DNA of 64,000 nt from Minisyncoccota bacterium (GCA_041671485.1 JBAZBL010000004.1:14445-78444), one strand, 5' to 3'. Shown: positions 1,564-61,597, counted from the first letter of the stretch. The notes: a model not told the origin generated them from the letters alone. Translations and numbers: made by a program.

Positions 1564-3093
1564 TTACCTTGCAAATTCTATTGTTCTCATTTCGCGAATA
1601 ACAATAATTTTGATTTCACCAGGATATTTGAGATCTTTTTCTATCTTCATAGCCAAATCTCGCGCTAGATTGCGTGCCTCTACATCGCTTATTTCTTCTG
1701 GCTTTACAAATACTCGTATTTCACGACCTGCTTGTAGAGCATATGACTTTTCGATACCAGGAAAAGAGTTTGCAGTAGCTTCTAGATCGCCAAGACGTTT
1801 GAGATAATTTTCTATGCTATCACGGCGTGCGCCAGGACGAGCTCCCGATATAGAGTCTGCAGTTTGTACAATACGAGATTCAATTGTCTCATAAGGATAT
1901 TCTTCATGATGAGCTTGCATTGCTTTTATGATCTCTTCTGGAGCTCCAAATTTTTGTAGGATTCTGCGACCAATCTCTACATGTGTGCCACTTACTTCAT
2001 GGTCTAATGCTTTGCCTATATCGTGTAGAAGAGCACCAGCTTTTGCAACTTGGACATTTGCACCCAATTCTTCGGCTATCATACCAGCTATATGAGACAT
2101 TTCTATAGAATGTTGTAAAACATTGTGTCCATAGCTCGTCCTGAAATGAAGTCTTCCCAATATGAGTAGTATCCTAGGATCAAGGCCCAATACACCACAT
2201 TCATATGCAGCCTGTTCGCCTCTTTCTTTTATAGTCTTATTGATATCTTGTTTGGCTTTTTCGACTACCTGTTCTATCCTAGCTGGCTGAATACGGCCGT
2301 CTTTGATGAGTTCTTCCAGTGCATTCTTTGCAATATGACGTCGAACGGGATCGAATGAAGAAATGGTTATTGCGCCAGGAGAATCATCAACCAAGACTTC
2401 TGTACCACTGATACGCTCAAATGCTTTGATGTTACGACCTTCTTTACCGATTATTTTTCCTTTTACATCATCACTTGGTATAGGAACAACAGTAGACATA
2501 ACATCAGAGGCAACAGAAGTAGCAAGCCTCTGAATAGATACAGCCAAAATATCTTTTGCTTTATCTTCTAGCATCTCTTCGCCTTGTGTTTCCAGTTTCT
2601 TGATACGAATCATCAAATCTTCTTCTGCTTGCTTCTCAATAAGCTTAACAAGCTCTTCTTTTGCTTCATTTGAAGTCATCTTGCTTATCTTTTCTAATTC
2701 TTGTTTCCTATGCTCTTCCAATTTGTCTGCTTGTTCACGAATCACTTTTACTTCTGCTACACGTTGTTTGACTATTTCAACTTCTTTATCAAGATCTACT
2801 TGTCTCTTGTCCAACATATCTTCTTTCTTGATAATACGCTCTTCAGATTGACGAATCTTATTTTCTTTTTCACGAATCTCTACTCTAGCTTCTTCTCCTA
2901 GTTTTTGACTCTTTGCCTCGGCATCGGTAGTGATCTTCTTTGCTTCTTCTTTTGCAGAGAGAAGCATCTCTTTGATTTCCAATTCCATAGAACCTTTCTT
3001 GCCGAGAGAAATGATAAGTCGCAGATAATAACCTACGGCTATACCGGCAACTCCTGCTATGGAGAGGAATAATGCTACTAATTTTAATGACAT
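1564..3093 (-). CDS. rny: Ribonuclease Y
   Basis: N-terminal TM helix, long coiled coil, KH motif (GKEGRNIKAFE) and HD domain (HDIGK). Confidence 0.9.
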   Translation of the reverse strand: MSLKLVALFLSIAGVAGIAVGYYLRLIISLGKKGSMELEIKEMLLSAKEEAKKITTDAEAKSQKLGEEARVEIREKENKIRQSEERIIKKEDMLDKRQVDLDKEVEIVKQRVAEVKVIREQADKLEEHRKQELEKISKMTSNEAKEELVKLIEKQAEEDLMIRIKKLETQGEEMLEDKAKDILAVSIQRLATSVASDVMSTVVPIPSDDVKGKIIGKEGRNIKAFERISGTEVLVDDSPGAITISSFDPVRRHIAKNALEELIKDGRIQPARIEQVVEKAKQDINKTIKERGEQAAYECGVLGLDPRILLILGRLHFRTSYGHNVLQHSIEMSHIAGMIAEELGANVQVAKAGALLHDIGKALDHEVSGTHVEIGRRILQKFGAPEEIIKAMQAHHEEYPYETIESRIVQTADSISGARPGARRDSIENYLKRLGDLEATANSFPGIEKSYALQAGREIRVFVKPEEISDVEARNLARDLAMKIEKDLKYPGEIKIIVIREMRTIEFAR

Positions 3094-48866: not shown

Positions 48867-49304
48867 GTAGAACTAAGTTATAACACATTCAAACTCGCTT
48901 TTGTATGGGTAACACTATTCTATCAAAATATTGTTTAAAAACATTAAAACAATCTTTTCTTAGAATCTAATAACTCGCTTTATCCGACATATATCATAGC
49001 TCTATCATAGGTCTTTCCAGTAACATCCAGTAACATTCATGGTTTTTTTATCTTTGAATCTTAGGTTTTCTTAGGTTCTTCAGAGTTATTCACAAAATAC
49101 TGTTTAGTGCTATTATAAGGCTACAACTGAATATGTAAGTAACCTAACCCAGTAAGCAATTGCTGGTATGGTGAAAAAGTCCTGACACGGATAAAGAACC
49201 CATCATATGGGGTTGCCGTGTCAGGCTATATCAGGAAACTGGTATAGAGGGCTTCGGTCCTCACCCATGTGGTGGGCTTTTTGCGTTCACTTCTTTAAAT
49301 ATTT

Positions 49305-49908: not shown

Positions 49909-50418
49909 ATGAATCCTAAAGAATACTATTACAACCGCTTTCGCCCCCAGTTTGATGAATGGATAAGTAAATTATCTTTACAGGGTTTTGTATTGGGTAT
50001 TTACAGAAATATTCCTATTCAATTCCTGCGAAAAGAAAATCTCTCGCACATTCCTCCAAAAGACTATATGTCGTTCTATCATGCACTTGCATACACTGTT
50101 TTAATTGATCAGGTCATGTATACCTACTTTAGGAAAGATTATCCGAAATTTGAGCAAATGACACATTATCCGAAAATTGAGTACGGATTAAGCAATACAT
50201 ATGCTCGCCCCTGGGATATTTCACATGGTAGCGGTGGTATTACAACATTTGAACAGTTTGCTGAATTTTTTGTTGTAGATATTAAGCAGTTTTTTACTGA
50301 TTACAAGTTTGAAACAGCGACATGGAACACAGTAAAGAAAGCAATGCTTAGTGATGAAGATGTTGTAGGTGGTTCACAAGGAGAAATCTTTAGAAAAACG
50401 TTAGAGAAAATAAAATGA
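49909..50418 (+). CDS. Hypothetical protein (element cargo)
   Basis: 169-aa ORF, 8 nt downstream of the previous gene. Confidence 0.35.
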   Translation: MNPKEYYYNRFRPQFDEWISKLSLQGFVLGIYRNIPIQFLRKENLSHIPPKDYMSFYHALAYTVLIDQVMYTYFRKDYPKFEQMTHYPKIEYGLSNTYARPWDISHGSGGITTFEQFAEFFVVDIKQFFTDYKFETATWNTVKKAMLSDEDVVGGSQGEIFRKTLEKIK

Positions 50419-50493
50419 TATCCACACAAAGGTTGATGTTTCTAATATAAGTATTTAATATATAAAAATGTGGATAACCTTACTTGAAATTAT

Positions 50494-51009
50494 ATGAATG
50501 AAAATAACAACATAACAAATGAACACGAAAAAATAAAAAACCTTGAATCAAAGATTTGGTTTCGTCTTCTAAAGGTAATTTTTATTTTTGTGTATCTAGC
50601 TATATTTTTATTTCTATTAGTTTTTGCGTACTCTAGTAAACCCTATGCTATCATTGATGAGTATAATTCAGTGATTGTGTGTGATAATGGAACGAGATAC
50701 AAAGCTGGAGATAATGGTATTAATGCCGAAGAAGCATGGGCTGAACAATTAGGTGCCACAAGGGTAGACCTAAATGGACTTACTCCAACAAAAATACAAG
50801 CAACACATTTATGCCTAGGTTATTCTGAAGGAAAGATTGGCTTTATTCCTGATATACCTCCCTATAAAGTAGAGATAGTGAGAAAGACTGTAGGGGATTG
50901 GAGTAGTTTTATTGGGTATACCGCTTTAGTATTATTCGTTACTATTATTGTCTTTGAGTTAGTCAAGCGATCTTTCTTCTATATTGTACTTGGGAAAAGG
51001 TTTTTTTAG
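50494..51009 (+). CDS. Hypothetical membrane protein
   Basis: 171 aa with two hydrophobic helices. Confidence 0.35.
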   Translation: MNENNNITNEHEKIKNLESKIWFRLLKVIFIFVYLAIFLFLLVFAYSSKPYAIIDEYNSVIVCDNGTRYKAGDNGINAEEAWAEQLGATRVDLNGLTPTKIQATHLCLGYSEGKIGFIPDIPPYKVEIVRKTVGDWSSFIGYTALVLFVTIIVFELVKRSFFYIVLGKRFF

Positions 51010-51018
51010 ATAATTAAT

Positions 51019-51927
51019 ATGCACCTCTGGACTTACATAAAATCTCGCAACGAAACGCTACTAGTAGTGGTTATTGCTGTAGTCGTGGTTATATCACTAA
51101 TAATTTGGTTTTTCCAAGATAAGGCACCAATACAAGAGATATCCGAACAATCAATCACGAATCAAAAAGAAATCACACAAAATGATAATTTCCAAAATAG
51201 TATGTTTATTAGAATTAGAGATAAACTTACCTTTAATAACGAACCCTATCATGGTCTTGAAGACGGGAGCTACCTTCCAGTTCTACGATTACCCATAAAG
51301 TATTTCCATAAGGATGATTTTCGAGGTGGGATATGGAATACTGCGGAAATAAAAGATAGCGATTATACCAATGCTACCCTTACTGGAAATGACGCATACC
51401 AGTCATTCCCAACAACTACGATAACTTTCCATAGTTGGTCATCAGATGCTGAACCCATACTACCAATAAAAACAAAAAGTCAAATAAGAGAAATCATAAA
51501 CACATATCCCGAACTCTATGAAGACAATCTGAAACAATACGGAGAATTTACCACTCGCTTTTGGCCTAATAGATATGTTACGGAAAAACAGTACTTTGAT
51601 GTTGATAATGATGGGAAAGACGAATCAATTATCTCCCTCTGTAGTAACATGGGTGGAAATATGGATTGCCCTGATAAAATCAATATCATAAAAGGAAATC
51701 AGATTATTTTCACAGCATCGGGTGAAGGAATAGGTATTTCGTCATCGAAAACAGACGATGGATTCTATATTGAATGGACAGATCGAGATACTCCTCCGAA
51801 TTTATTTATGGGCTATTGTTGTTCCGCTGGTAATAAGAAGACAAGGTTCATATTCTATAATAATGAATTTAAACCATTATACGAACAAGAGATACGATAT
51901 TTTGAGGTAATTGATACTCAATTTTGA
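51019..51927 (+). CDS. Hypothetical signal-anchored protein, paralogous leader family member 1
   Basis: N-terminus MHLWTYIKSRNETL plus TM. Its first ~40 nt are nearly identical to those of the next gene. Confidence 0.45.
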   Translation: MHLWTYIKSRNETLLVVVIAVVVVISLIIWFFQDKAPIQEISEQSITNQKEITQNDNFQNSMFIRIRDKLTFNNEPYHGLEDGSYLPVLRLPIKYFHKDDFRGGIWNTAEIKDSDYTNATLTGNDAYQSFPTTTITFHSWSSDAEPILPIKTKSQIREIINTYPELYEDNLKQYGEFTTRFWPNRYVTEKQYFDVDNDGKDESIISLCSNMGGNMDCPDKINIIKGNQIIFTASGEGIGISSSKTDDGFYIEWTDRDTPPNLFMGYCCSAGNKKTRFIFYNNEFKPLYEQEIRYFEVIDTQF

Positions 51928-51944
51928 ATCCCTAACAATCAAAC

Positions 51945-53147
51945 ATGCACCTCTGGACTTACATAAAATCTCGCAACGAAACATTACGGTTGGCAGTTAT
52001 TGCTATGGTCATAATTACCTTCTTAATCATTTGGTCTTCAATACATAAGACGCAAAATTCAATTTCTTCTGATTTCAAATGTCCCAATGACTACAAAACA
52101 ATTGAGGAGTATGTTGAGAGTCTCGCTAAATGGATTCGAGTTACAATGGATGAAAATCCCAAAATAACACCTGATGAGATACAGAAATTAAGAGATGAAG
52201 AAATTGCAGAACATAAATGCAGTTTAAGTAATTGGCTATCGGAAGATGATATGGCTATGTTAGATAAATCAGTAACTTCTTTGACAGAAAGCACGACTAC
52301 TACAAATGAACAGATTTTCAACTTGAATATTACGATAGCTAGAACACCGTATGAGCTTTCCGATTATTCACCAAATGGAGATTACTGGATAGCCAATTAT
52401 TATTCAGCAACCACATCATCCAACCAATTTAATCCTAAAATTATTGTTTTATATGTTCCAATCTATTCCACCTACGCAAACTCTGATGGAACAGAAGTTA
52501 CAGCGAAAAATGTAGCAGATAATTTTGCTTATCACACAAAAGAAGACGGTTTCACACTTCTCAACCCACTTTCATTTACTGACCCCAAAAAACCTGATAC
52601 AGATATTTATGTACTTACATCCTATAAATTACGCATGGATGAAGATTACAGCCCAATTTTCTTCACAGTTATTCGAAAGACCAAGTCTGGAGTTTTTGCT
52701 GTGCTTTATGATAAGGAAATTGAAAATGGTATAGATGAAACTTTAACAAGACAGAAAATACTAGAATGGCTAAATATCCATACAAAATACATGGAACAAA
52801 TTGAGAAATTCGATCCATTTGATTTCCTCCATGAAGACATGACATCATATTCTAATATCTCACAACATCAAGAAGTTAATATAACTGGAAGAGTTGTAGA
52901 TTGGATGACCTATGGAAGAATCTTGGTAAAAAATTCAGTTTCTGACTATCCGTTTATGTATTTTATAGCAGAACCAGATGATGTAATTTCTGAGGGTACT
53001 TCACGGTATAGTCCAACAACCAATGCAATCAAAAATGAAGCTACTATTAAAATAATTGGAGAGATAATTGATGGATGTTTTTGGAATGAAAAAAAATATG
53101 ATGGCTGTGTGCCATGGGTTACAATAAAGAGTTTACAACAAATATAA
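51945..53147 (+). CDS. Hypothetical signal-anchored protein, paralogous leader family member 2
   Basis: Same MHLWTYIKSRNETL leader with a different 380-aa body. Confidence 0.45.
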   Translation: MHLWTYIKSRNETLRLAVIAMVIITFLIIWSSIHKTQNSISSDFKCPNDYKTIEEYVESLAKWIRVTMDENPKITPDEIQKLRDEEIAEHKCSLSNWLSEDDMAMLDKSVTSLTESTTTTNEQIFNLNITIARTPYELSDYSPNGDYWIANYYSATTSSNQFNPKIIVLYVPIYSTYANSDGTEVTAKNVADNFAYHTKEDGFTLLNPLSFTDPKKPDTDIYVLTSYKLRMDEDYSPIFFTVIRKTKSGVFAVLYDKEIENGIDETLTRQKILEWLNIHTKYMEQIEKFDPFDFLHEDMTSYSNISQHQEVNITGRVVDWMTYGRILVKNSVSDYPFMYFIAEPDDVISEGTSRYSPTTNAIKNEATIKIIGEIIDGCFWNEKKYDGCVPWVTIKSLQQI

Positions 53148-53320
53148 AGAGTGATGGAGTAAACTGCATTTAAACACCCTGTTCTTACCGCTTATCTTCG
53201 CGTAGGACTGATTCATTCTCGAGATTGGTGTACTTTATGGCTGAAAATGAGGGCGCCTGTTATCTTAGGTTTTCTTAGGTTCTAGTTTTTAGATTTTTAG
53301 CGTATATAAGGGAGATAAAA

Positions 53321-53653
53321 CTATAAACTATTTTTCTGGTCAGAATGCCCATATATCTTATTGATTGAAGATGTCAGCACTGCGTTTAACTTTGCATTTA
53401 GTTGAAACTGTTTATTTTCAACATTTCCTAACTCTATGGTCTCTTTCGGTTTCCCAACTGAATATTCAAGCAACATCTTAAATGCTGATGTATTTGATTT
53501 CTCTGCTAATACAGTCTTAATCTGCGCATCTATCATTGGTCCGATCTGTTCATGGACTCTTTTTGTAATCTCCTCATTTATGCGTTGAGTTAGAAGTGTC
53601 TTTGTAGCAAGCGGTCGTCCCGCCCCTTCCCTTTTTCCTCCTCTATTTTCCAT
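53321..53653 (-). CDS. Hypothetical small basic protein (phage-like GGKREGAGRP N-terminus)
   Basis: 110 aa. The Gly/Arg-rich N-terminus is reminiscent of phage small DNA-binding proteins. Confidence 0.35.
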   Translation of the reverse strand: MENRGGKREGAGRPLATKTLLTQRINEEITKRVHEQIGPMIDAQIKTVLAEKSNTSAFKMLLEYSVGKPKETIELGNVENKQFQLNAKLNAVLTSSINKIYGHSDQKNSL

Positions 53654-53769
53654 GATACTTTAAGTTAGTTTAAATTCTCATACTTATTCAAACAATCAAA
53701 CTAATATTTAGATTATAAAGTAAGGGTGGGGATAATCAACCGAATAACAAAAATGTAGAATTCTTTGAT

Positions 53770-54273
53770 ATGATACTGTATATGATAAGACTTTGGTTTT
53801 TGGTTAGATATTTTGTCTATTTTCCAGCCACAAATGGTTATTGGGCGAACCAAAATGATGCGATAGAGAGGGATAAATTCATATGGTATATTGTTACGGA
53901 TAAGTTACTTTTTCAAAATATTATAGATACTATTAGAGAGTTCTATTTTAGAAAAATACAAGGACACTATAACAATGAGACAGATGAGGTTGTTATGGAG
54001 AGATTGCGTAGGCGTCTAAAAAAGATTGATGATCTTATTGATAGAGCTATTTCGAAAAATTACTTGGTACCCATAAATAAGAATGGATATCATCAAAATC
54101 TAAAAATTGAGTGGCAGGGAAAGAATTTTATTAAACTGTTACCGTTCTGTGAGGCGTGTCTAAAAGAATATGGGCAATCCGTGACTATCATTATTGCTTT
54201 GTTAGGATCTGGAATAATTTCGGTGATTATTACTAATTGGGGTAATATAATTTCATATTTTCATTCATTATAA
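53770..54273 (+). CDS. Hypothetical protein with a C-terminal TM helix
   Basis: 167-aa ORF. Confidence 0.3.
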   Translation: MILYMIRLWFLVRYFVYFPATNGYWANQNDAIERDKFIWYIVTDKLLFQNIIDTIREFYFRKIQGHYNNETDEVVMERLRRRLKKIDDLIDRAISKNYLVPINKNGYHQNLKIEWQGKNFIKLLPFCEACLKEYGQSVTIIIALLGSGIISVIITNWGNIISYFHSL

Positions 54274-54330
54274 AAAGTATATTGATTGATTTGCTGTTTT
54301 AAAATAAAGTTGTATAGTTAAATTACCAAA

Positions 54331-54612
54331 ATGCTAGAAGAAAAAATAATAAAAATTATCTTGAAAGTTGCTGGAATTTGTTTGATTTTCTTAATCATAT
54401 CTCCTTTCTTTATTACACCAGAAACGGGAAGTACACTTGAAACTATTATGCTTATACCTGTCATTCCAGTAATAATGGCAGGCGTGATTTTGGTTGTGCT
54501 TAGTCGTTCTCGTCACGATACAATACTTCCTCCATATCTTCGTGTAGTTGGTCTTATTCTCTTTGGACTATGGATTTTGTCATTCTTCATTGATAACCCT
54601 TTTCGTGGATAG
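54331..54612 (+). CDS. Small membrane protein
   Basis: 93 aa, three hydrophobic helices. Confidence 0.3.
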   Translation: MLEEKIIKIILKVAGICLIFLIISPFFITPETGSTLETIMLIPVIPVIMAGVILVVLSRSRHDTILPPYLRVVGLILFGLWILSFFIDNPFRG

Positions 54613-54619
54613 GATAATA

Positions 54620-54910
54620 GTGACGAAGTTATCTAAGATCTGCTATAGTTTATTCGGAGTAGTGAGAGTTGGTGTTTTTCGGTCTTAGATTGAAAACAAT
54701 GTTGTGTACTAAGTCCGTCATCCGCCTTTGTGCGGTGGATTTGCCCATTAGGGCGAAAGGTGCGGTTAAAAGCAACAGTGACCTACTGGGTACATCAAGA
54801 GTTCAGCCGAGCATAATGGGAGCATAAATGAGGGCTGAAAGGCGCAAGAGGATTTATCCTCCCGCTTGCTACTCCCACAAAGGACTTCTCTGACGAGGAG
54901 TTTTTTGTTT
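54620..54910 (+). ncRNA. rnpB: Candidate RNase P RNA-like structured RNA (reduced), or another GC-rich ncRNA
   Basis: Three motifs appear in the order CR-I, CR-IV, CR-V of bacterial RNase P RNA: AAGUCCG (54711), AGGGCGAAAGGUGCGGUUAAAAGC (54750) and ACAAAGGACUU (54887). It also has several perfect hairpins and ends in a T6 run. Confidence 0.35.
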
Positions 54911-55272
54911 GCTCACTTATTAAATCCTATGTATGGCAGAAAAATAGAGATTGAGATATTTCTCCTTGAATTCCATCTCTGATTGCGAAATCATTTACGC
55001 ATTATTTCTTTTTATGGTGGACCTCACGTTCGGTGGTACGAGGATGCTTAAGAGCGTATGCCTCCCTCACTCTTCTTCCTGTTACTGAACTTCGATAGAA
55101 TATAATCACCTTGTTCATTTTGGTTTTGGATTAAATATTTTGATAATTCATCTATTGATTTTTATCAGAGACGGAATTCAGGGAAAAATTAACAATTTGG
55201 TCCAACACCCATGGTGTATTATACCATTTTTATCTATTTGCGATAAGTACAAATTTGTTGTAATGTTGCTTT

Positions 55273-56193
55273 ATGTCTATTTTCCAGATCCAAAATTCAA
55301 AGCTGATCGCTATAAGGGATAAAGATGTAGAACTTGAGAAAGATATTCAGAAATTGACGGAAGAAAATCTTGAAACCGTATTTGGTTTACAATTTATCAG
55401 AACGGAGTTTCCTCTTGGTGATTTTAGAATCGATACTCTTGCTTTTGACAATGAGTCAAATTCATTCGTGATTATTGAATACAAACGAGATAGGAGTTTT
55501 AGTGTTATTGATCAAGGATATTCTTATCTTGCTCTAATGCTTAATAATAAAGCAGACTTTATTCTTGAATACAACGAAAAACTTCAGACCAATCTTAGAA
55601 AAGATGATGTAGATTGGTCTCAGTCCCGTGTTATTTTTCTGGCAAAGTCATTCAATCGGTATCAGCAAAATGCTATCAATTTTCGCGACCTTCCAATTGA
55701 ATTGTGGGAAGTAAAGAACTATGACAATTCAACTATTCTTTACAATCAACTTCTTTCTCCTGAAGCGAAAGAATCAGTAAAATCTATCACTAGAAATAAG
55801 ACTATAGAAAACGTAACCAAAGAGGTAAAAGTTTATACTATTGAAGATCATACTAATCATATAAATAAAGATACTAGGGACCTTTTTGAAATGATTCGTG
55901 AAAAGATTTTAGCTTTAGGTGGTAATATTGAAGAGAGACCTAAGAAAAAATATATCGCATATAGAACACATCAAGCATTTTTATATGTGCACATTCAACA
56001 GTCACAAATAAAATTACATATCATTATTGGTAAATCAAAATTAAACGACCCCAAAGGAATCACTAGGGATGTTTCAAAAGTTGGTCATTATGGTGGGGGG
56101 GTAACTGAAATTGTTCTAACTAAAATGGAAGAAATTTCATATATAATGACGTTAATTGAGCAGTCTTTTAATTCTTCTAAAAGTAGTTTCTAG
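55273..56193 (+). CDS. PD-(D/E)xK nuclease-fold protein with a C-terminal DUF5655-like domain
   Basis: The RIDTLAFD...VIIEYKRD motif places D...E.K in a restriction-endonuclease-like core. Confidence 0.45.
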   Translation: MSIFQIQNSKLIAIRDKDVELEKDIQKLTEENLETVFGLQFIRTEFPLGDFRIDTLAFDNESNSFVIIEYKRDRSFSVIDQGYSYLALMLNNKADFILEYNEKLQTNLRKDDVDWSQSRVIFLAKSFNRYQQNAINFRDLPIELWEVKNYDNSTILYNQLLSPEAKESVKSITRNKTIENVTKEVKVYTIEDHTNHINKDTRDLFEMIREKILALGGNIEERPKKKYIAYRTHQAFLYVHIQQSQIKLHIIIGKSKLNDPKGITRDVSKVGHYGGGVTEIVLTKMEEISYIMTLIEQSFNSSKSSF

Positions 56194-56235
56194 TGATAAT
56201 AGGAATTTCAGCTAGAGAGCTTTTTAAATAAACCT

Positions 56236-57285
56236 ATGGCTACTAAATCATTAAATAGTAATCTACATAAAGCAGGTAGAGCAAAGCAAGACGAGTTTTA
56301 TACCCAGCTTATTGATATTGAAAAAGAATTAAAGCACTACAAAGAACAGTTTCGAGGTAAGGTGGTGTATTGCAACTGCGACGATCCGTTTGAAAGCAAT
56401 TTTTTCAAATATTTTGCCACCAACTTTAATGCGCTTGGTCTCAAAAAGTTAATCACTACCAGTTTTACAAAGTCGCCAATTGCCGGAGGGCAGTTGCCGC
56501 TCTTTGAAGTCAAAGGTCTAAAACCGAAAGGTAAAGAGCCGTTTAAAATTGAGCTTAATGAAGTAACCGATAGCAATGCCGACGGCGCTGTTGGGATTGC
56601 CGATGTGAAATGGCTTTTGAAAAACGATGCCAACATCGCCACTGCTCTAAAGGGCGACGGAGATTTTCGCAGTGATGAGTGTATTGAACTGCTTAAAGAG
56701 GCAGATATTGTCGTAACCAACCCGCCGTTTTCGCTCTTTCGTGAGTATGTAGCGCAACTTGTGGAATATAATAAAAAGTTTTTGATTCTAGGCGACCAAA
56801 ATGCAGTAACCTATAAAGAAACCTTCGGTTTTATCAAAGAAAATAAATTATGGCATGGTTACGATAATGGTGGTACAAAATGGTTTCAGGTTCCTAATGA
56901 TTATGACATTGAAACAGAGTCAAGAATAAAAATTGAAAACGGTACAAAGTTTTTCAGTATGGGTAGAATTGTATGGTATACAAACCTCGACACTACAAAA
57001 CGTCATGAAAAAATAGAATTATATAAGAAATATTCGTCAGAAGAATTTCCTAAATACGATAACTACAACGTAATAAATGTTGATAAGGTAGCCGATATAC
57101 CAATGGATTATAAGGGAGTAATGGGCGTACCGATTACCTTTGTTGATAAATATAGTCCAGCACAGTTTGAAATATTGGGCGTTGCAAATTCTGCAAGATG
57201 GATCGGTTACGAATGTTTTACTTTAATTGAAGGTAGAAAAATATATAATCGAATTTTAATTAAAAATAAGAAGGTAAAAAAATAA
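56236..57285 (+). CDS. N6-adenine DNA methyltransferase, M.EcoRI family
   Basis: The IVVTNPPFS catalytic motif, plus N-terminal KQDEFYTQ and VVYCNCDDPFESNFFKYF regions typical of EcoRI-type methylases. GC-rich relative to the genome. Confidence 0.75.
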   Translation: MATKSLNSNLHKAGRAKQDEFYTQLIDIEKELKHYKEQFRGKVVYCNCDDPFESNFFKYFATNFNALGLKKLITTSFTKSPIAGGQLPLFEVKGLKPKGKEPFKIELNEVTDSNADGAVGIADVKWLLKNDANIATALKGDGDFRSDECIELLKEADIVVTNPPFSLFREYVAQLVEYNKKFLILGDQNAVTYKETFGFIKENKLWHGYDNGGTKWFQVPNDYDIETESRIKIENGTKFFSMGRIVWYTNLDTTKRHEKIELYKKYSSEEFPKYDNYNVINVDKVADIPMDYKGVMGVPITFVDKYSPAQFEILGVANSARWIGYECFTLIEGRKIYNRILIKNKKVKK

Positions 57286-57286
57286 T

Positions 57287-58396
57287 ATGAAAATTGATTT
57301 ACATAAAATTTCTGTGCGCGAAGTATTTGGTGGCTACAAAGACAGTGCCGAAGAAGGAGTGGTAGCTTATGGAGGTAAGCTAGATATTCGCCCAAAATAC
57401 CAGCGGGAATTTGTCTACAAGCCCGAGCAACGTGATGCGGTCATGCATACTGTTCAACATCAATTTCCGCTTAATGTCATGTATTGGATAGAAAATAGCG
57501 CCGGAAACTATGAGTTGCTTGATGGTCAACAGCGTACACTAAGCATTTGTCAGTACGTGAGCGGCGACTATTCCATTCATGACCGCTATTTCCATAATCT
57601 CACCAAGGAAGAAAAAGACCAGATACTCGACTACGAGCTCATGATCTACTTTTGTGACGGCACCGATAAGGAGCGCATTGAATGGTTTGAAGTTATAAAT
57701 ACAGCTGGTGAAAAACTTACCCCGCAGGAGTTGCTTAACGCCGTCTACACTGGACCATGGCTCTCGGATGCAAAACTCAAATTCAGTAAAACGGGCTGCG
57801 TATCCTATCATTTGGCAAATGATGGCGGAGCATTAGTCAGCGGATCGCCAATTCGGCAAGAGTATCTGGAAACCGCACTTTCGTGGATAAACAACGGTGA
57901 AGTGGCGGGCTACATGGCTAAACACCAGCACGACAAGAACGCTGACAAATTGTGGGACTATTTCCAAAATGTAATTGATTGGGTACGGAAAACATTTACC
58001 AATTATCGTCGAGAAATGAACAGCGTGGGGTGGGGTGAGTTGTATAACGAATTTAAAGACAAAAAACTGAATGCCGAGAAACTGGAGACCGAAATCAAAG
58101 AGTTGATGCAAGACGAAGATGTAACGAAAAAATCTGGTGTTTATCCGTATGTATTGACGAGACAAGAAAAATATCTTTCAATTCGTGCCTTTACCGATAA
58201 AATGAAGCGCGAGGCATACGAGCGACAAAACGGTATCTGTACAGATTGTAAAAAACAGAAAAAACAGAAAATAAAGTGGGATATTTCTGAAATGGAAGCT
58301 GATCATATAAAACCGTGGCATGAAGGAGGAAGAACAATTGCAGAAAATTGCAAAATGTTATGCAAAGACGATAATCGAGATAAATCAGGAAAATAA
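57287..58396 (+). CDS. DUF262 (ParB-like, DGQQR motif) plus C-terminal HNH nuclease protein
   Basis: The LLDGQQRTLSI hallmark of DUF262/GmrS-like N-domains, and a C-terminal CTDCKK...ADHIKPWHEGGRT...NCKMLCKDDN zinc-finger HNH. Its start is 2 nt after the MTase stop. Confidence 0.7.
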   Translation: MKIDLHKISVREVFGGYKDSAEEGVVAYGGKLDIRPKYQREFVYKPEQRDAVMHTVQHQFPLNVMYWIENSAGNYELLDGQQRTLSICQYVSGDYSIHDRYFHNLTKEEKDQILDYELMIYFCDGTDKERIEWFEVINTAGEKLTPQELLNAVYTGPWLSDAKLKFSKTGCVSYHLANDGGALVSGSPIRQEYLETALSWINNGEVAGYMAKHQHDKNADKLWDYFQNVIDWVRKTFTNYRREMNSVGWGELYNEFKDKKLNAEKLETEIKELMQDEDVTKKSGVYPYVLTRQEKYLSIRAFTDKMKREAYERQNGICTDCKKQKKQKIKWDISEMEADHIKPWHEGGRTIAENCKMLCKDDNRDKSGK

Positions 58397-58410
58397 AATA
58401 GACCAAGATT

Positions 58411-59103
58411 ATGACAGGAATATTCTTTGCACATCCACATACACTTCTAGATCAAGTAGGTAAGGTTATGGACAGAGTCGGTTCTGAAAAATTCTTTTCA
58501 AGTTCAGATGAAAAGGTAAAGAAAGCCAGAGAAGGATTTGTGGCATATTTCTTCACTCTTGCCTTAAAGAAATATACGAGGAGAGATTGGTGGTTGGCGC
58601 AGTATGACCAAGCCACAAGGGCTTACCCAGATTTCGATTTTATATCTTTTGCAGAAAATCCTGATGATATGAAAATGGAACCAGTGGAGCTAACTGGTAT
58701 TTATCCTCACTTCAAATCTTTTGACGAAGCTCTAAAAGTTGTTGAGAAGAAACAGAACCAATATGGTGATAAGTCAGTGAAGTTCAGTTTGTTAGTCTTT
58801 GTTAATCACGAGAAGAGCGAAGAATGGATCAGTCTACTTAGACAGAAAGTAAGTAGTGAGCATCCATTCTTGAGTATATGGACAATACACTTGCGTTTTA
58901 AAGATGGCAGAAAGGAAGTTGGCAAGGCAGTTGCCCAAAGGATTGTGCCATTACCATATCTAAGAGTCGAAGCCAGAACCGATGACCCTGAGATGCATAA
59001 AAGACAACCCCTTCCAACTTATATAGAACAACACCAAGACGGTGAAAATATTTATATTACATTCAAAGCTGAGTTTATTAATAAAATGCGAAGGACTAAG
59101 TAG
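58411..59103 (+). CDS. Hypothetical protein, fourth gene of the defence-like operon
   Basis: 230-aa ORF, co-directional, 14 nt after the HNH gene. Confidence 0.35.
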   Translation: MTGIFFAHPHTLLDQVGKVMDRVGSEKFFSSSDEKVKKAREGFVAYFFTLALKKYTRRDWWLAQYDQATRAYPDFDFISFAENPDDMKMEPVELTGIYPHFKSFDEALKVVEKKQNQYGDKSVKFSLLVFVNHEKSEEWISLLRQKVSSEHPFLSIWTIHLRFKDGRKEVGKAVAQRIVPLPYLRVEARTDDPEMHKRQPLPTYIEQHQDGENIYITFKAEFINKMRRTK

Positions 59104-59365
59104 TAAATACTTACAATCCGATAGATTAATCAATAAAGTAAATCAATCCGTGTGTGCCATCTCCAACTCCGCCTTAATCCCCACAAAGCTTGTATACAAC
59201 GATTCCATATATTCCCAATCTTCTAGTATACTTATAATACCATTTGGACAAGGACTCTTAAACACACATCGCCTTAATAAACATCAACCGATTGTACAAC
59301 CCCTGCATATAATCCCTATCCGAGAAAATGGTTATAATAATCTCTTGTTCGGGGCACCAACATAT

Positions 59366-59740
59366 TTACAACGGCATATCAAATGCAAAGAAACCTGCTC
59401 CTGTTACGAGAAGTGAAATTGCCATGATGAGTAGTAGGAGATAGTAATTGACTCCGTCTGTGAGGAAGGCTTTTCCTCGGATGCGATCTATGAGGCGAAC
59501 AATAAGGTCAATGAGAATAATTAGGGCGGCTAGTTGAGTCCATAGGCCGATAATGAGCATGATTCCCAACAGACCTTCTATGATCTGAATTATTTTAGTA
59601 TTGAGAGAGACATTGTTTGACGATTTGTTTGCACGAAAACTACGATATGCCCAGAATAGAAATACGGCACCGAGAGAAAGGCGGATCAGAAATGGAGAAA
59701 GTTGTTCATATGTAAGTAGTGAAGGGAATATTGAAAGCAT
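59366..59740 (-). CDS. DoxX-family membrane protein
   Basis: 124 aa, four TM helices with the DoxX-like pattern (RL.LG..F...G..K). Confidence 0.45.
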   Translation of the reverse strand: MLSIFPSLLTYEQLSPFLIRLSLGAVFLFWAYRSFRANKSSNNVSLNTKIIQIIEGLLGIMLIIGLWTQLAALIILIDLIVRLIDRIRGKAFLTDGVNYYLLLLIMAISLLVTGAGFFAFDMPL

Positions 59741-59790
59741 ATTGATGTATTTATTATTTTTAGTTAATGTCTATACGTCAAGGTTAGTCC

Positions 59791-60297
59791 TTGATGTGCA
59801 TATCTATGATAACAAAAAAACGAGACATACGCTTGTTGCTCGACAATATACGGAGTGTTCACAACGTAGGTTCCATATTTCGTACAGCCGAAACACTAGG
59901 TATATCAAAGATATATTGCCTAAATACTACCCCTACACCAAAAGACCGCTTTGGTCGTAAAAGAAATGATTTTGCAAAAGTTTCTCTAGGTGCAGAAGAA
60001 ATGATCGATTGGGAAAAGATAAATGATGAATTGTTAGCTATAAAATTGATCAGAACATTGAAAAGGGAAGGATTTGATATTATTGCATTGGAGCAAGCAT
60101 CAGGTTCTATTGATTACAAAAAAGTAAAAATTGGTTCAAAGGTCATGATTATTCTTGGAAATGAAGTCAATGGTATATCAGATGAATTACTAAAAATGGC
60201 TGATACAATTGCCGAGATTCCAATGAAAGGAGAGAAGGAATCTCTCAACGTCTCTATTGCTAGCGGAATATTCTTGTATAGGATTCTCGATAGATAG
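59791..60297 (+). CDS. SPOUT (SpoU/TrmH-type) RNA 2'-O-methyltransferase, TrmL-size
   Basis: Short SpoU fold with GNE..G and the C-terminal IPM.G...SLNVS..A.I motif. The true start may be the Met at 59806. Confidence 0.65.
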   Translation: MMCISMITKKRDIRLLLDNIRSVHNVGSIFRTAETLGISKIYCLNTTPTPKDRFGRKRNDFAKVSLGAEEMIDWEKINDELLAIKLIRTLKREGFDIIALEQASGSIDYKKVKIGSKVMIILGNEVNGISDELLKMADTIAEIPMKGEKESLNVSIASGIFLYRILDR

Positions 60298-60340
60298 TTA
60301 TCCATTCTAGGCTTGGCAAAAATCTGCTAAAATATGGAGG

Positions 60341-61597
60341 ATGAGACATCTCATAATCGCTTGTTTATTGTTTGCTCTTATCGGGGCTCCTTGGATAGTC
60401 AATAACTATCCTCTTCAGTCTCAATATATAACTGATGCAATCGCAAATATTGCTAGTCAACTTGCCGCGGTTATCATGCACAAGCCAAAAACTGTCGCTG
60501 GATTGCAATCAAAATACAATATTTCTGCTACTCGTGGTACAGATAAGATTCACATTCTCTTGGTTCCTGGACATGAGCCAAATTATGGTGGTGCAGAATA
60601 TAGAGATCTTAAGGAAAGAGATATGAATATTGAATTAGCGAATAATTTAGCAGACATACTGAGAAATAATAATAGATATGAAGTTATTGTTGTTAGAGAT
60701 GATAAGTCTTGGTTGCCAGAATTATCAAAGTATTTCAAAGATTCTTGGGGAGAGATAATTGAATGGAAAAATCTATATAAAGAAGAATTTCTTCGTCTCC
60801 AATCAATAGTTGGTACCAATTCGACGAAGCCAAAAGTATATCATAACAGTGCCCCAAATAATGTTGCTTTGCGCCTTTATGGCATCACAAAGTGGGCAAA
60901 TGAAAAGGATATGGATATTGTTATTCATATTCATTTCAATGATAATCCTGGACATTCATCGAATAGTCCTGGGGACCACAGCGGTTTTGCTATATATGTT
61001 CCAGAAGAACAATTTGCAAATAGTACAACCACAAAGACAATTGCAGAATCTATATTTCAAAGATTGGCCAAGTACAATGCAGTAAGTGATCTAAAAGGTG
61101 AAAGTGAAGGGGTAATAGAAGAATCAGAATTGATCGCTATAGGTGTGTACAATACTTCTGATGCACCAAGTATGCTCATAGAGTATGGATATATATATGA
61201 ACAACAATTTGCAAATGAAAGTACAAGAGATCTTGCAATCAAAGATCTTGCTTTCCAGACATATCTCGGAGTACAAGATTTCTTTGGTTCTGGCAATGAC
61301 TATAGTCTTGCTTATGATACGCTTATGTTGCCATATAAGTGGCAAAGGGAGATAAAAATAAATGATGGTCCGAGCAAAGACATTCTCGCATTGCAGACGG
61401 CATTACAATCAAAAGGATGGTACCCACCATCTTCAAGAAGTAAAAATGATTGTCCGAGAACTGGTACTTTCGGTTCATGTACAAAAGCTGCGCTTACTGA
61501 ATTTCAAAGCAAAAAGGGTATAAAAAATGAAAATGGAATAGTTGGCCCAAAGACACTTGATGCACTAAACATAGAATACGGCAATAAAGTTATATAG
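60341..61597 (+). CDS. N-acetylmuramoyl-L-alanine amidase (Amidase_3) with a C-terminal peptidoglycan-binding domain
   Basis: ILLVPGHEP...GA and DIVIHIHFN zinc-site motifs; a C-terminal PG_binding_1-like repeat (LQTALQSKGWY...GIVGPKTLDAL). Confidence 0.75.
   Translation: MRHLIIACLLFALIGAPWIVNNYPLQSQYITDAIANIASQLAAVIMHKPKTVAGLQSKYNISATRGTDKIHILLVPGHEPNYGGAEYRDLKERDMNIELANNLADILRNNNRYEVIVVRDDKSWLPELSKYFKDSWGEIIEWKNLYKEEFLRLQSIVGTNSTKPKVYHNSAPNNVALRLYGITKWANEKDMDIVIHIHFNDNPGHSSNSPGDHSGFAIYVPEEQFANSTTTKTIAESIFQRLAKYNAVSDLKGESEGVIEESELIAIGVYNTSDAPSMLIEYGYIYEQQFANESTRDLAIKDLAFQTYLGVQDFFGSGNDYSLAYDTLMLPYKWQREIKINDGPSKDILALQTALQSKGWYPPSSRSKNDCPRTGTFGSCTKAALTEFQSKKGIKNENGIVGPKTLDALNIEYGNKVI

Follow-up and report, generated by a model that had tools for sequence, protein, structure and literature searches.

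The window analysed here, a 64,000-nt stretch of DNA, contains four open reading frames (ORFs) on the same strand between nucleotides 55273 and 59103, all of which were found where an earlier note on this sequence had placed them. The genes, together with the extent of the mobile element recognised among them, are as follows.

55273..56193, plus strand: protein 1 (306 aa), ORF call; N-terminal PD-(D/E)xK-like domain and C-terminal DUF5655; PDC-S18 match
56236..57285, plus strand: protein 2, or M (349 aa), EcoRI-family N6-adenine DNA methyltransferase
57287..58396, plus strand: protein 3, or R (369 aa), predicted DUF262/GmrS-N plus zinc-finger HNH restriction nuclease
58411..59103, plus strand: protein 4 (230 aa), small unnamed family, tentative PD-(D/E)xK-like fold; a "rider" gene
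56216..58412, plus strand: extent of the mobile M-R cassette, from nucleotide similarity to 80 related loci

The domain assignments of the earlier note were confirmed, with Pfam identifying DUF5655 in protein 1, EcoRI_methylase in protein 2, and GmrSD_N/DUF262 plus HNH in protein 3, and giving no match for protein 4. The four genes are separated by 42, 1, and 14 nt, with nothing resembling a plus-strand terminator between them, so that it is plausible, judging from the sequence, that they share one transcript. The M-R gap had previously been given as 2 nt; the methylase stop codon (TAA, 57283-57285) is followed by a single T, and the nuclease ATG starts at 57287.

The description of the locus as a GC-rich four-gene operon proved inaccurate. 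The GC content of the window is 0.367, and that of the background ORFs (n = 43) averages 0.365 ± 0.032. GC is elevated in the nuclease gene only (0.418; z = 1.6, GC3 z = 2.9), whereas the methylase gene is average as a whole (0.361; z = -0.1), with values of 0.39-0.42 confined to its 5′ half. The genes for proteins 1 and 4 have GC contents of 0.315 (z = -1.6) and 0.383 (z = 0.5), respectively. The proposal that the methylase and nuclease genes are foreign because they are GC-rich thus keeps its compositional basis for the nuclease gene and loses it for the methylase gene. The foreign origin of both is better shown by their best DNA match, a Candidatus Andersenbacteria cassette (L001) that is 87.4% identical over 56235-58399. 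Rfam searches of the window, and of the non-coding sequence preceding protein 1, returned nothing relevant to the operon. The four genes are not one evolutionary unit; the region is a small defence island, consisting of a two-gene restriction-modification (RM) cassette and two separate flanking modules.

The methylase and its DUF262-HNH partner

Protein 2 matches the Pfam EcoRI_methylase family (4.9e-134) and, over its full length, the PADLOC MTase_II profile (PDLC03297; 2.5e-123). It has the SAM-dependent core and the NPPF/NPPY-type amino-methyltransferase motif that characterise a type II methyltransferase; the catalytic NPPF (residues 162-165, nucleotides 56719-56730) lies in a residue block that is 99% conserved across 70 loci. 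Comparison with the 326-aa methylase encoded by small E. coli plasmids, which we take to be M.EcoRI, gave identities of 47.9% (tblastn) to 51% (alignment), and the plasmid enzyme nests inside the diversity of HNH-partnered methylases. The methylase family is therefore common to this locus and to the EcoRI system. However, the partner of M.EcoRI is a PD-(D/E)xK endonuclease, whereas here it is a DUF262-HNH protein, and the gene order is R then M in the EcoRI system, as in a genuine pair of this kind on a Leuconostoc plasmid with an EcoRI-family endonuclease (L144), compared with M then R at this locus.

Protein 3 consists of a GmrSD_N/DUF262 domain (4e-19; residues 34-154, nucleotides 57386-57748), a helical middle region, and a C-terminal HNH domain (PF01844; 3.2e-9, residues 318-367). 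The DUF262 part contains the motifs YQREF (57398-57412) and DGQQR (residues 79-83, nucleotides 57521-57535), and the zinc-finger HNH (58238-58387) follows the pattern CxxC...DH...NCxxxC...N over residues 318-363 (C318, C321, D339-H340, N354-C355, C359, and N363). The DUF262 motifs, the HNH catalytic residues, and the zinc ligands were all invariant among 34 homologues. The PADLOC REase_II profile (PDLC03418; 3.8e-127) aligned with residues 1-369 of the protein over positions 1-372 of its 372, which places protein 3, as a separate endonuclease, in a recognised type II family. Structural modelling with AF2 from a 34-sequence alignment gave a low-confidence model (pLDDT 45.4, pTM 0.27), which was left unused.

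Both proteins therefore match the two components of the PADLOC-DB type II RM system over their full lengths, and their genes lie side by side in the same orientation and are strictly linked. The earlier note had regarded the pairing as unusual and had set a match to an already-described defence family against its own account; the MTase_II and REase_II matches constitute just such a match. A named, biochemically characterised DUF262-HNH type II prototype was not found in the searchable literature, and the "type II" label thus rests on the profile name and on gene context. Homologues in RefSeq and GenBank are named only "DUF262 domain-containing protein" or "HNH endonuclease", and no specific NCBIfam model exists for the DUF262-HNH nuclease.

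The architecture of protein 3 resembles that of GmrSD, BrxU, and SspE, which likewise combine an N-terminal DUF262 domain bearing DGQQR, a helical linker, and a C-terminal His-Me finger nuclease. However, those enzymes carry DUF1524, for which protein 3 gave no Pfam match, its nuclease domain being a classical zinc-finger HNH, and the profile match to this group is confined to the N-terminal domain. The NsnA profile of the Menshen system (NsnABC) also covers the DUF262 part only (residues 30-158; 5.9e-22), with no other Nsn profile matched by any of the four proteins, and the PADLOC PD-T4-2_A match is similarly limited to the N-terminal domain. A profile search against PDB sequences recovered HNH domains only, aligning the HNH part with McrA (6ghc) and Gme HNH (4h9d), and found neither SspE nor BrxU.

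In the published descriptions, the DUF262 domains of GmrSD, BrxU, and SspE sense modified DNA and bind or use NTPs, so that protein 3 may differ from a simple type IIP enzyme. One can envisage an SspE-like mechanism, in which DUF262 would read the m6A of the host and license the HNH domain, through NTP hydrolysis, to nick or cut the unmarked invader; besides blocking cleavage, methylation would in this case serve as a self signal that activates the enzyme. The QR and DGQQR motifs are intact and invariant, which speaks for this mechanism, and the strict co-occurrence with a modification enzyme is in keeping with it, although that linkage fits either model. Self-mark sensing is nevertheless quite unlikely: the full-length match is to REase_II, the NsnA and PD-T4-2_A matches stop at the N-terminal domain, SspE and BrxU were not recovered among solved structures, and a methylase gene placed first, with a 1-nt gap to its partner, is the arrangement expected for a nuclease that would kill the cell if methylation were absent.

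Palindrome avoidance was used to look for the recognition site, both in the window and across 843 kb of carrier loci, but revealed no convincing signal; for GAATTC, the observed/expected ratio was 0.51 in the window (z = -2.4) and 0.84 across the 80 loci.

Linkage and mobility of the cassette

The cassette is very widespread, all 8000 candidates that were scored being significant relatives and 380 matches coming from species-representative genomes. The 80 related loci closest to this one, taken from species-representative genomes and chosen by nuclease similarity, all encode an EcoRI-family methylase that precedes the nuclease and shares its strand, with an M-R gap of at most 10 nt in 44. Copies with 36-58% identity, carried on plasmids from Bacillota, Actinomycetota, Pseudomonadota, and Bacteroidota and by a Flavobacterium phage, keep the pairing; a cross-check of listed plasmid records found the methylase beside the nuclease in 23 of 25, as well as in the one phage checked. 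Adjacent, co-inherited methylase and endonuclease genes are a defining feature of type II RM systems. The earlier note had asked whether the two genes co-occur elsewhere, which they do, and the first of its alternatives, that the methylase shields self-DNA from the adjacent DUF262-HNH nuclease, is supported by this linkage, by the methylase-first order, and by the persistence of the pair on plasmids and phage.

Its second alternative, a type IV or SspE-like sensor whose neighbouring methylase serves another partner, fared poorly. In the type IV version, protein 3 would be a GmrSD-like, modification-dependent nuclease lying beside an unrelated or orphan methylase that perhaps serves protein 1. 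The GmrSD-like combination of DUF262 with a His-Me finger nuclease points in this direction, as does a weak PADLOC mREase_IV match (0.0015), which spans residues 307-364 only. However, type IV enzymes stand alone, whereas the nuclease was never seen without the methylase in the 80 loci, a pairing that extends to 23 of the 25 plasmid records and to the phage; the C-terminal domain is PF01844 HNH and not DUF1524; protein 1 is missing from 78 of the 80 loci; and a nuclease that cuts m6A-marked DNA would turn against its own host if encoded beside an adenine methylase. This explanation is already contradicted by the linkage data and is highly improbable. SspE, for its part, works with SspABCD, and Pfam searches of 10 neighbouring ORFs (49909-61597) found no Ssp/Dnd-type or other DNA-modification genes near the cassette, nor did the four proteins themselves give any Ssp/Dnd-type match.

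The boundaries of the pair at the DNA level are sharp. A blastn comparison of window positions 53000-61000 with the 80 loci (L001-L080) yielded 145 HSPs, all of which fall inside 56216-58412, that is, exactly the M and R genes, and no similarity was found outside this interval. Exchange of the cassette at this site is shown by a close relative (L145, L146): an 85%-identical protein 1 lies in a syntenic backbone in L145, and in L146 it adjoins a different M-R allele (M 51%, R 64% identical), the junction falling within M, in its conserved 5′ end. The cassette also receives genes, as 13 of the 80 loci have extra ones wedged between M and R, encoding T5orf172, Bro-N, Fic, RhuM, DUF4145, DUF2130, and unknown proteins; the embedding of other genes in RM operons has been documented and described as multi-level defence (PMC3710099).

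Mean pairwise identity among the sampled loci was 79% for the nuclease and 65% for the methylase, with a Spearman coefficient of 0.13, these loci having been chosen on nuclease similarity. A nuclease more conserved than its methylase is atypical for type II pairs and may be a sampling artefact, and the weak co-divergence was not built on, because of the way in which the loci were selected.

The core of the region is thus an ordinary, mobile two-gene type II RM system, already labelled by PADLOC profiles; for nucleotides 56236-58396 as a horizontally mobile, two-gene type II RM cassette, we estimate a probability of about 0.8.

The flanking genes

Protein 1 carries DUF5655 (9.9e-16; nucleotides 55843-56175), and it matches the PADLOC model PDC-S18 end to end (2.9e-118; residues 1-299 against positions 1-301 of 302). 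Its N-terminal domain is read as PD-(D/E)xK-like, as suggested by the motif that it contains (D54...E69-Y-K71), by weak NucS and HSDR_N_2 matches, and by YhcG_C/HSDR_N_2 matches of its relatives in precomputed annotation. To our knowledge, PDC-S18, a single-gene PADLOC phage defence candidate, is a candidate defence gene only, and no mention of it was found in the literature searched. A protein 1 relative lies beside M-R in only 2 of the 80 loci, at 30-35% identity. These counts, together with its place in the backbone of L145 while the adjoining M-R allele is swapped in L146, argue against protein 1 as a third component of the system; by sequence comparison, it is an independent neighbour belonging to the host backbone, outside the RM cassette.

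Protein 4 belongs to a small, unnamed family found mainly in Patescibacteria-type assemblies, of which a profile search recovered 64 representatives. Its structure model is confident and gives a weak PD-(D/E)xK-like fold signal, so that such a fold is tentatively assigned. Invariant residues include E41, P73-D74, E93, and K114, and T95 is nearly so, in a PD...ExT arrangement in which this threonine occupies the lysine position of the D...(D/E)xK motif; the invariant K37, K38, E41, and K114 are located on helices. With the model as query, Foldseek gave no significant match among PDB or viral structures. Eight of 10 relatives scanned against Pfam had no match, and the two longer ones matched SEC-C or MFS_1 outside the part aligned to protein 4. 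These scans and the Foldseek search gave no link to a named family.

None of the 80 closest loci has protein 4 alongside the M-R pair, which speaks against a single four-gene system. Protein 4 does, however, ride on a DUF262-HNH-type RM operon in 22 of 43 informative loci, once lying exactly between M and R. From these sequence comparisons, it is best described as a rider that is often attached to such operons, outside the conserved cassette. Two other origins were considered and rejected. A homing-type gene that co-converts the nuclease 3′ end was discounted, as divergent nuclease genes had an identity of 0.64 over their final 108 nt with protein 4 downstream (n = 18) and of 0.63 without it (n = 2); the apparent extension of similarity at this end arises because the HNH-coding region is conserved. 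The protein 4 gene showed neither terminal repeats nor shared flanks. A host gene at an insertion hotspot was likewise discounted, since, whatever the context, similarity to the window stops where the ORF begins and where it ends.

In its position, protein 4 resembles the toxin and abortive-infection genes embedded in RM operons (PrrC, RloC, Fic/DOC, RhuM, DUF4145, and Ymh HEPN): like the M-R inserts, it lies on the same strand, tightly packed in or after the operon. It shows no sequence relationship to these families, and the descriptions of such embedded toxin genes concern mostly type I RM loci. A role as a second effector is possible. Protein 4 might be an accessory of the RM pair, making a three-part system, either as a PrrC-like second-line nuclease freed when a phage disables restriction, or as a further nuclease from which the same methylase shields the host. 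We consider this arrangement unlikely.

Proposed working and significance

As a type II RM cassette, the pair would work as follows. The EcoRI-family methylase would mark the host copies of a short recognition site, possibly GAATTC or a relative, and the zinc-finger HNH of the nuclease would cut DNA without this mark. The nuclease start, 1 nt past the methylase stop, suggests that the nuclease is probably translationally coupled to the methylase, in which case no nuclease would be made without a methylase message. DUF262 and the helical middle region may serve to bind or recognise DNA, and may also bring nucleotide-dependent control. Protein 4, lodged in or behind the RM operon as the Fic, RhuM, DUF4145, and T5orf172 genes are elsewhere, probably borrows RM transcription.

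Two bolder proposals may be made: that the DUF262-HNH enzyme is a nucleotide-gated nuclease whose ParB-like domain reads methylation, which would bridge type II systems to GmrSD/SspE, or that protein 4 founds a nuclease-fold effector family specific to DUF262-HNH RM operons, acting as a PrrC-like back-up against phage that neutralise restriction. That at least one of them is true seems a minority prospect.

As found, the cassette adds another copy to a very widespread RM type, and in that respect it matters little. Yet the abundant nuclease type that it represents, DUF262 plus a zinc-finger HNH obligately paired with an EcoRI-family methylase, is apparently without biochemistry in the open literature, and it bears on whether DUF262 can serve ordinary methylation-sensitive restriction. 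One methylase family partnered with two unrelated nuclease folds offers a clean example of partner exchange. The M-R operon is, in addition, a landing pad for diverse rider genes, including the unnamed family of protein 4, which is relevant to the "RM-guard" idea in Patescibacteria, whose genomes are tiny.

Four genes and their profile matches

Four open reading frames, all on the plus strand, were present at the coordinates at which an earlier note had placed a GC-rich, four-gene defence-like operon:

55273-56193, plus strand: protein 1, 306 aa, Pfam DUF5655 (9.9e-16)
56236-57285, plus strand: protein 2, the methylase (M), 349 aa, Pfam EcoRI_methylase (4.9e-134)
57287-58396, plus strand: protein 3, the nuclease (R), 369 aa, GmrSD_N/DUF262 (4e-19, residues 34-154) and HNH (3.2e-9, residues 318-367)
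58411-59103, plus strand: protein 4, 230 aa, no Pfam match

The earlier domain assignments agreed with Pfam, and the NPPF, DGQQR and zinc-finger HNH motifs were all found in the sequence. The genes are separated, in order, by 42, 1 and 14 nt, the M-R spacing being 1 nt rather than the 2 nt previously stated, and no terminator-like sites were seen between them on the plus strand. Elevated GC content was borne out for the protein 3 gene only (0.418; GC3 z = 2.9); the protein 2 gene, also described as GC-rich, is at background (0.361 over the whole gene, compared with 0.365 +/- 0.032), the protein 1 gene lies below background, and the protein 4 gene is ordinary. Proteins identical to proteins 1 and 4 have been recorded on an 88.6-kb contig from a 'Candidatus Paceibacterota' assembly, which places the host in the Patescibacteria.

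In PADLOC-DB, protein 2 matched MTase_II (2.5e-123), and protein 3 matched REase_II PDLC03418 (3.8e-127), with residues 1-369 aligned to positions 1-372 of the 372-position profile. The DUF262 defence proteins NsnA and PD-T4-2_A matched protein 3 in its N-terminal domain only, and the match to the type IV model was marginal (0.0015, residues 307-364). Protein 1 matched PDC-S18, a single-gene candidate, from end to end (2.9e-118), and protein 4 gave zero matches in this database. For M and R, the proposal of an undescribed system is not supported by these searches, in which the pair fits a known family, the outcome named beforehand as refuting it.

Judged by profile, gene order and linkage, the M-R pair is predicted to belong to type II RM. 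It differs from the GmrSD-type type IV enzymes, in that R is without DUF1524 and never solitary at the loci examined; from Ssp, in that modification genes were absent among the neighbours tested; from Menshen, in that its partners are absent among the four proteins; and from the EcoRI system proper, in both the nuclease and the gene order. No named or biochemically characterised prototype of the pair was found in the searchable literature, and ParB-HNH fusions were still listed as novel in a survey of the ParB-CTPase fold from 2025, in which DUF262 is unmentioned.

The M-R pair across genomes

A one-genome-per-species scan revealed 380 relatives of protein 3, of which the best 80 loci were retained (L001-L080). 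These are mainly from Patescibacteria, the other assembly labels being Gammaproteobacteria, Bacteroidota, Elusimicrobiota, Omnitrophota, Fidelibacterota and Atribacterota. Among these best 80 of 380, an EcoRI-family methylase lies upstream of the nuclease on the same strand at every locus (80/80), relatives of protein 1 occur at two (30-35% identity), and protein 4 occurs at none; the four genes are thus not supported as one system. M and R are at most 10 nt apart at 44 loci, 11-250 nt apart at 23, and further apart at 13. More distant nucleases (36-58% identity) again adjoin a methylase on plasmids of Chryseobacterium, Macrococcoides, Aeromonas, Variovorax, Gordonia, Enterococcus, Lactobacillaceae and others, as does a nuclease of 37.7% identity in the Flavobacterium phage laban6-1. 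No nuclease without a methylase was found among the 80 loci, the plasmid copies and the phage examined. The Chryseobacterium taklimakanense plasmid NZ_CP034172.1 carries an intact, annotated nuclease gene preceded by an unannotated methylase that matches in two pieces, which could reflect a frameshift beside an intact nuclease or a sequencing error.

When window positions 53000-61000 were compared with the 80 loci at the DNA level, all HSPs (145/145) fell inside 56216-58412, indicating that the mobile unit is exactly M plus R. The best match was a Candidatus Andersenbacteria contig (87.4% over 56235-58399). A 2.6-kb contig binned as Methanobacterium sp. (PLXT01000004.1) also carries an M-R pair, with a nuclease identity of 84%; the place of this pair in an archaeal assembly represents either cross-domain transfer or a binning error. 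Across 70 of the loci and the window, mean pairwise identity was 79% for the nuclease and 65% for the methylase, divergence of M and R was barely correlated (Spearman 0.13), and methylase variation was concentrated at residues 111-140, 221-240 and 311-340. This pattern may be partly an artefact, because the sample was chosen on nuclease similarity.

Protein 2 shares 47.9% (tblastn) to 51% (alignment) identity with a 326-aa methylase of small E. coli plasmids, which, from its N-terminus, we take to be M.EcoRI. In the tree, the plasmid methylase falls among the HNH-partnered methylases, whose mutual identity is 44-66%, and a Leuconostoc plasmid carries the classical EcoRI-family order, endonuclease then methylase. 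Two unrelated nuclease folds are thus partnered with one methylase family. GAATTC, a possible recognition site of the pair, ranks second in depletion among 6-mer palindromes of the window (O/E 0.51, z -2.4) and is not likewise depleted across the 80 loci (O/E 0.84).

Neighbouring genes and riders

The closest relative of protein 1 (85%) was found on two contigs, L145 and L146. On L145 it lies near SpoU_methylase and Amidase_3 genes, families that also flank the window island, in a relative orientation differing from that of the window, and the DNA in common with the window extends from 54958 to 56238. On L146, protein 1 is followed by another M-R allele (methylase 51% and nuclease 64% identical to those of the window), and DNA identity, 79% from protein 1 to ~180 nt into the methylase gene, is 64% beyond. 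The L145 context and the L146 allele difference indicate that protein 1 belongs to the resident genome and that the adjoining RM cassette was exchanged by recombination where the methylase gene is conserved at its 5′ end. Further relatives of protein 1 have a Shedu-type nuclease gene or dnaX as their neighbour. A role for protein 1 as third component, raised in the earlier note, is not supported, given its presence at 2/80 loci, its residence in the relative and the swapped M-R allele next to it; its adjacency to M-R is defence-island co-location. At L146, the slot 3′ of the nuclease holds unknown ORFs of 49 and 265 aa where the window has protein 4, and thus is also variable.

Other features lie upstream of protein 1:

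49141-49262, plus strand: full-length LOOT RNA (RF03000; Rfam 85.4 bits, gathering 46.4, E 1.1e-14), ~6 kb 5′ of the four-gene region
51019-51927 and 51945-53147, plus strand: adjacent ORFs (302 and 400 aa), function unassigned, no Pfam match
54613-55272, plus strand: 660 nt with no ORF of at least 60 aa and no Rfam match

The two ORFs share their first 14 residues (MHLWTYIKSRNETL) and diverge thereafter, the common start suggesting local duplication. The 660-nt region, especially 54640-54960 (plus strand), has a GC content of 0.39-0.41, compared with ~0.33 in its surroundings. The plus-strand fold beats 100/100 shuffles (z -3.1; minus strand similar, z -2.9), with a stem-loop followed by a U-run at its 3′ end, and the 660-nt region shares DNA with L145 only from 54958 onward. 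A structured RNA that has escaped annotation may lie here.

The M-R junction serves as a bay for cargo, since at 13 of the 80 loci (L008, L009, L017, L021, L033, L034, L039, L041, L042, L047, L054, L059, L067) M and R have one or two same-strand genes packed closely between them. These riders include T5orf172 (4 loci), Bro-N (2), RhuM (2), Fic, DUF4145 and DUF2130 families, as well as several membrane or coiled-coil proteins of unknown family. Fic/DOC, RhuM, DUF4145, Ymh and PrrC genes embedded in RM operons have been described as multi-level defence (PMC3710099). At L084, a T5orf172/MUG113 gene (2025-2693) lies immediately upstream of the methylase.

The unnamed family of protein 4 has few members (143 clusters; 64 representatives at the 50% level among 1.84 billion proteins) and no match in Pfam, PADLOC, NCBIfam or PHROGs. 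The upstream gene was surveyed at 46 distinct loci, 43 of them informative.

Gene upstream of protein 4 at the informative loci
DUF262-HNH nuclease, immediately upstream (subfamilies 35-89% identical to protein 3): 18
EcoRI-family methylase, immediately upstream: 3
M-R pair, then one gene: 1
NPPF-motif protein, roughly 590-860 aa: 5
Type IIG enzyme end: 1
Full-length PDC-S53 candidate: 1
Ymh protein: 1
Assorted unknowns, housekeeping-like genes or no ORF found: 13

Protein 4 is thus attached to M-R-type RM at 22/43 loci; at L128, it lies between M (115-1212) and R (1909-3015), at 1218-1907. Nucleotide similarity between contexts begins no more than 3 nt from the start codon and ends just before the stop, with no shared flanks seen. 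The varied contexts and gene-only similarity indicate that protein 4 is one rider among many on M-R operons. A functional link between protein 4 and the RM enzyme seems unlikely. A test for co-conversion of the nuclease gene 3′ end with protein 4 was negative. The large NPPF-motif protein ('ILFENPPFRD'; L103, L108, L117, L123, L135/L136) had no match in Pfam or PADLOC, and may represent a fused methyltransferase or restriction enzyme not previously described.

Proposed working of the M-R pair

The methylase would mark host DNA, and the nuclease gene, 1 nt 3′ of M, is probably translationally coupled to it, such that R would not be expressed without the methylase message. R is predicted to be active as a His-Me finger nuclease and to keep its ParB-like nucleotide-binding signature intact, since its HNH residues (C318, C321, D339-H340, N354-C355, C359, N363) and DUF262 residues (Q39-R40, D79-G-Q-Q-R83) do not vary among 34 homologues. 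In GmrSD, BrxU and SspE, the DUF262 domain binds NTPs and senses modified DNA; a minority reading is that this domain of R might take the mark of M as a licensing signal, rather than the mark serving as a block alone. What draws attention to the region is a very common nuclease architecture whose biochemistry is uncharacterised, together with the rider family of protein 4, the sole part with some novelty.
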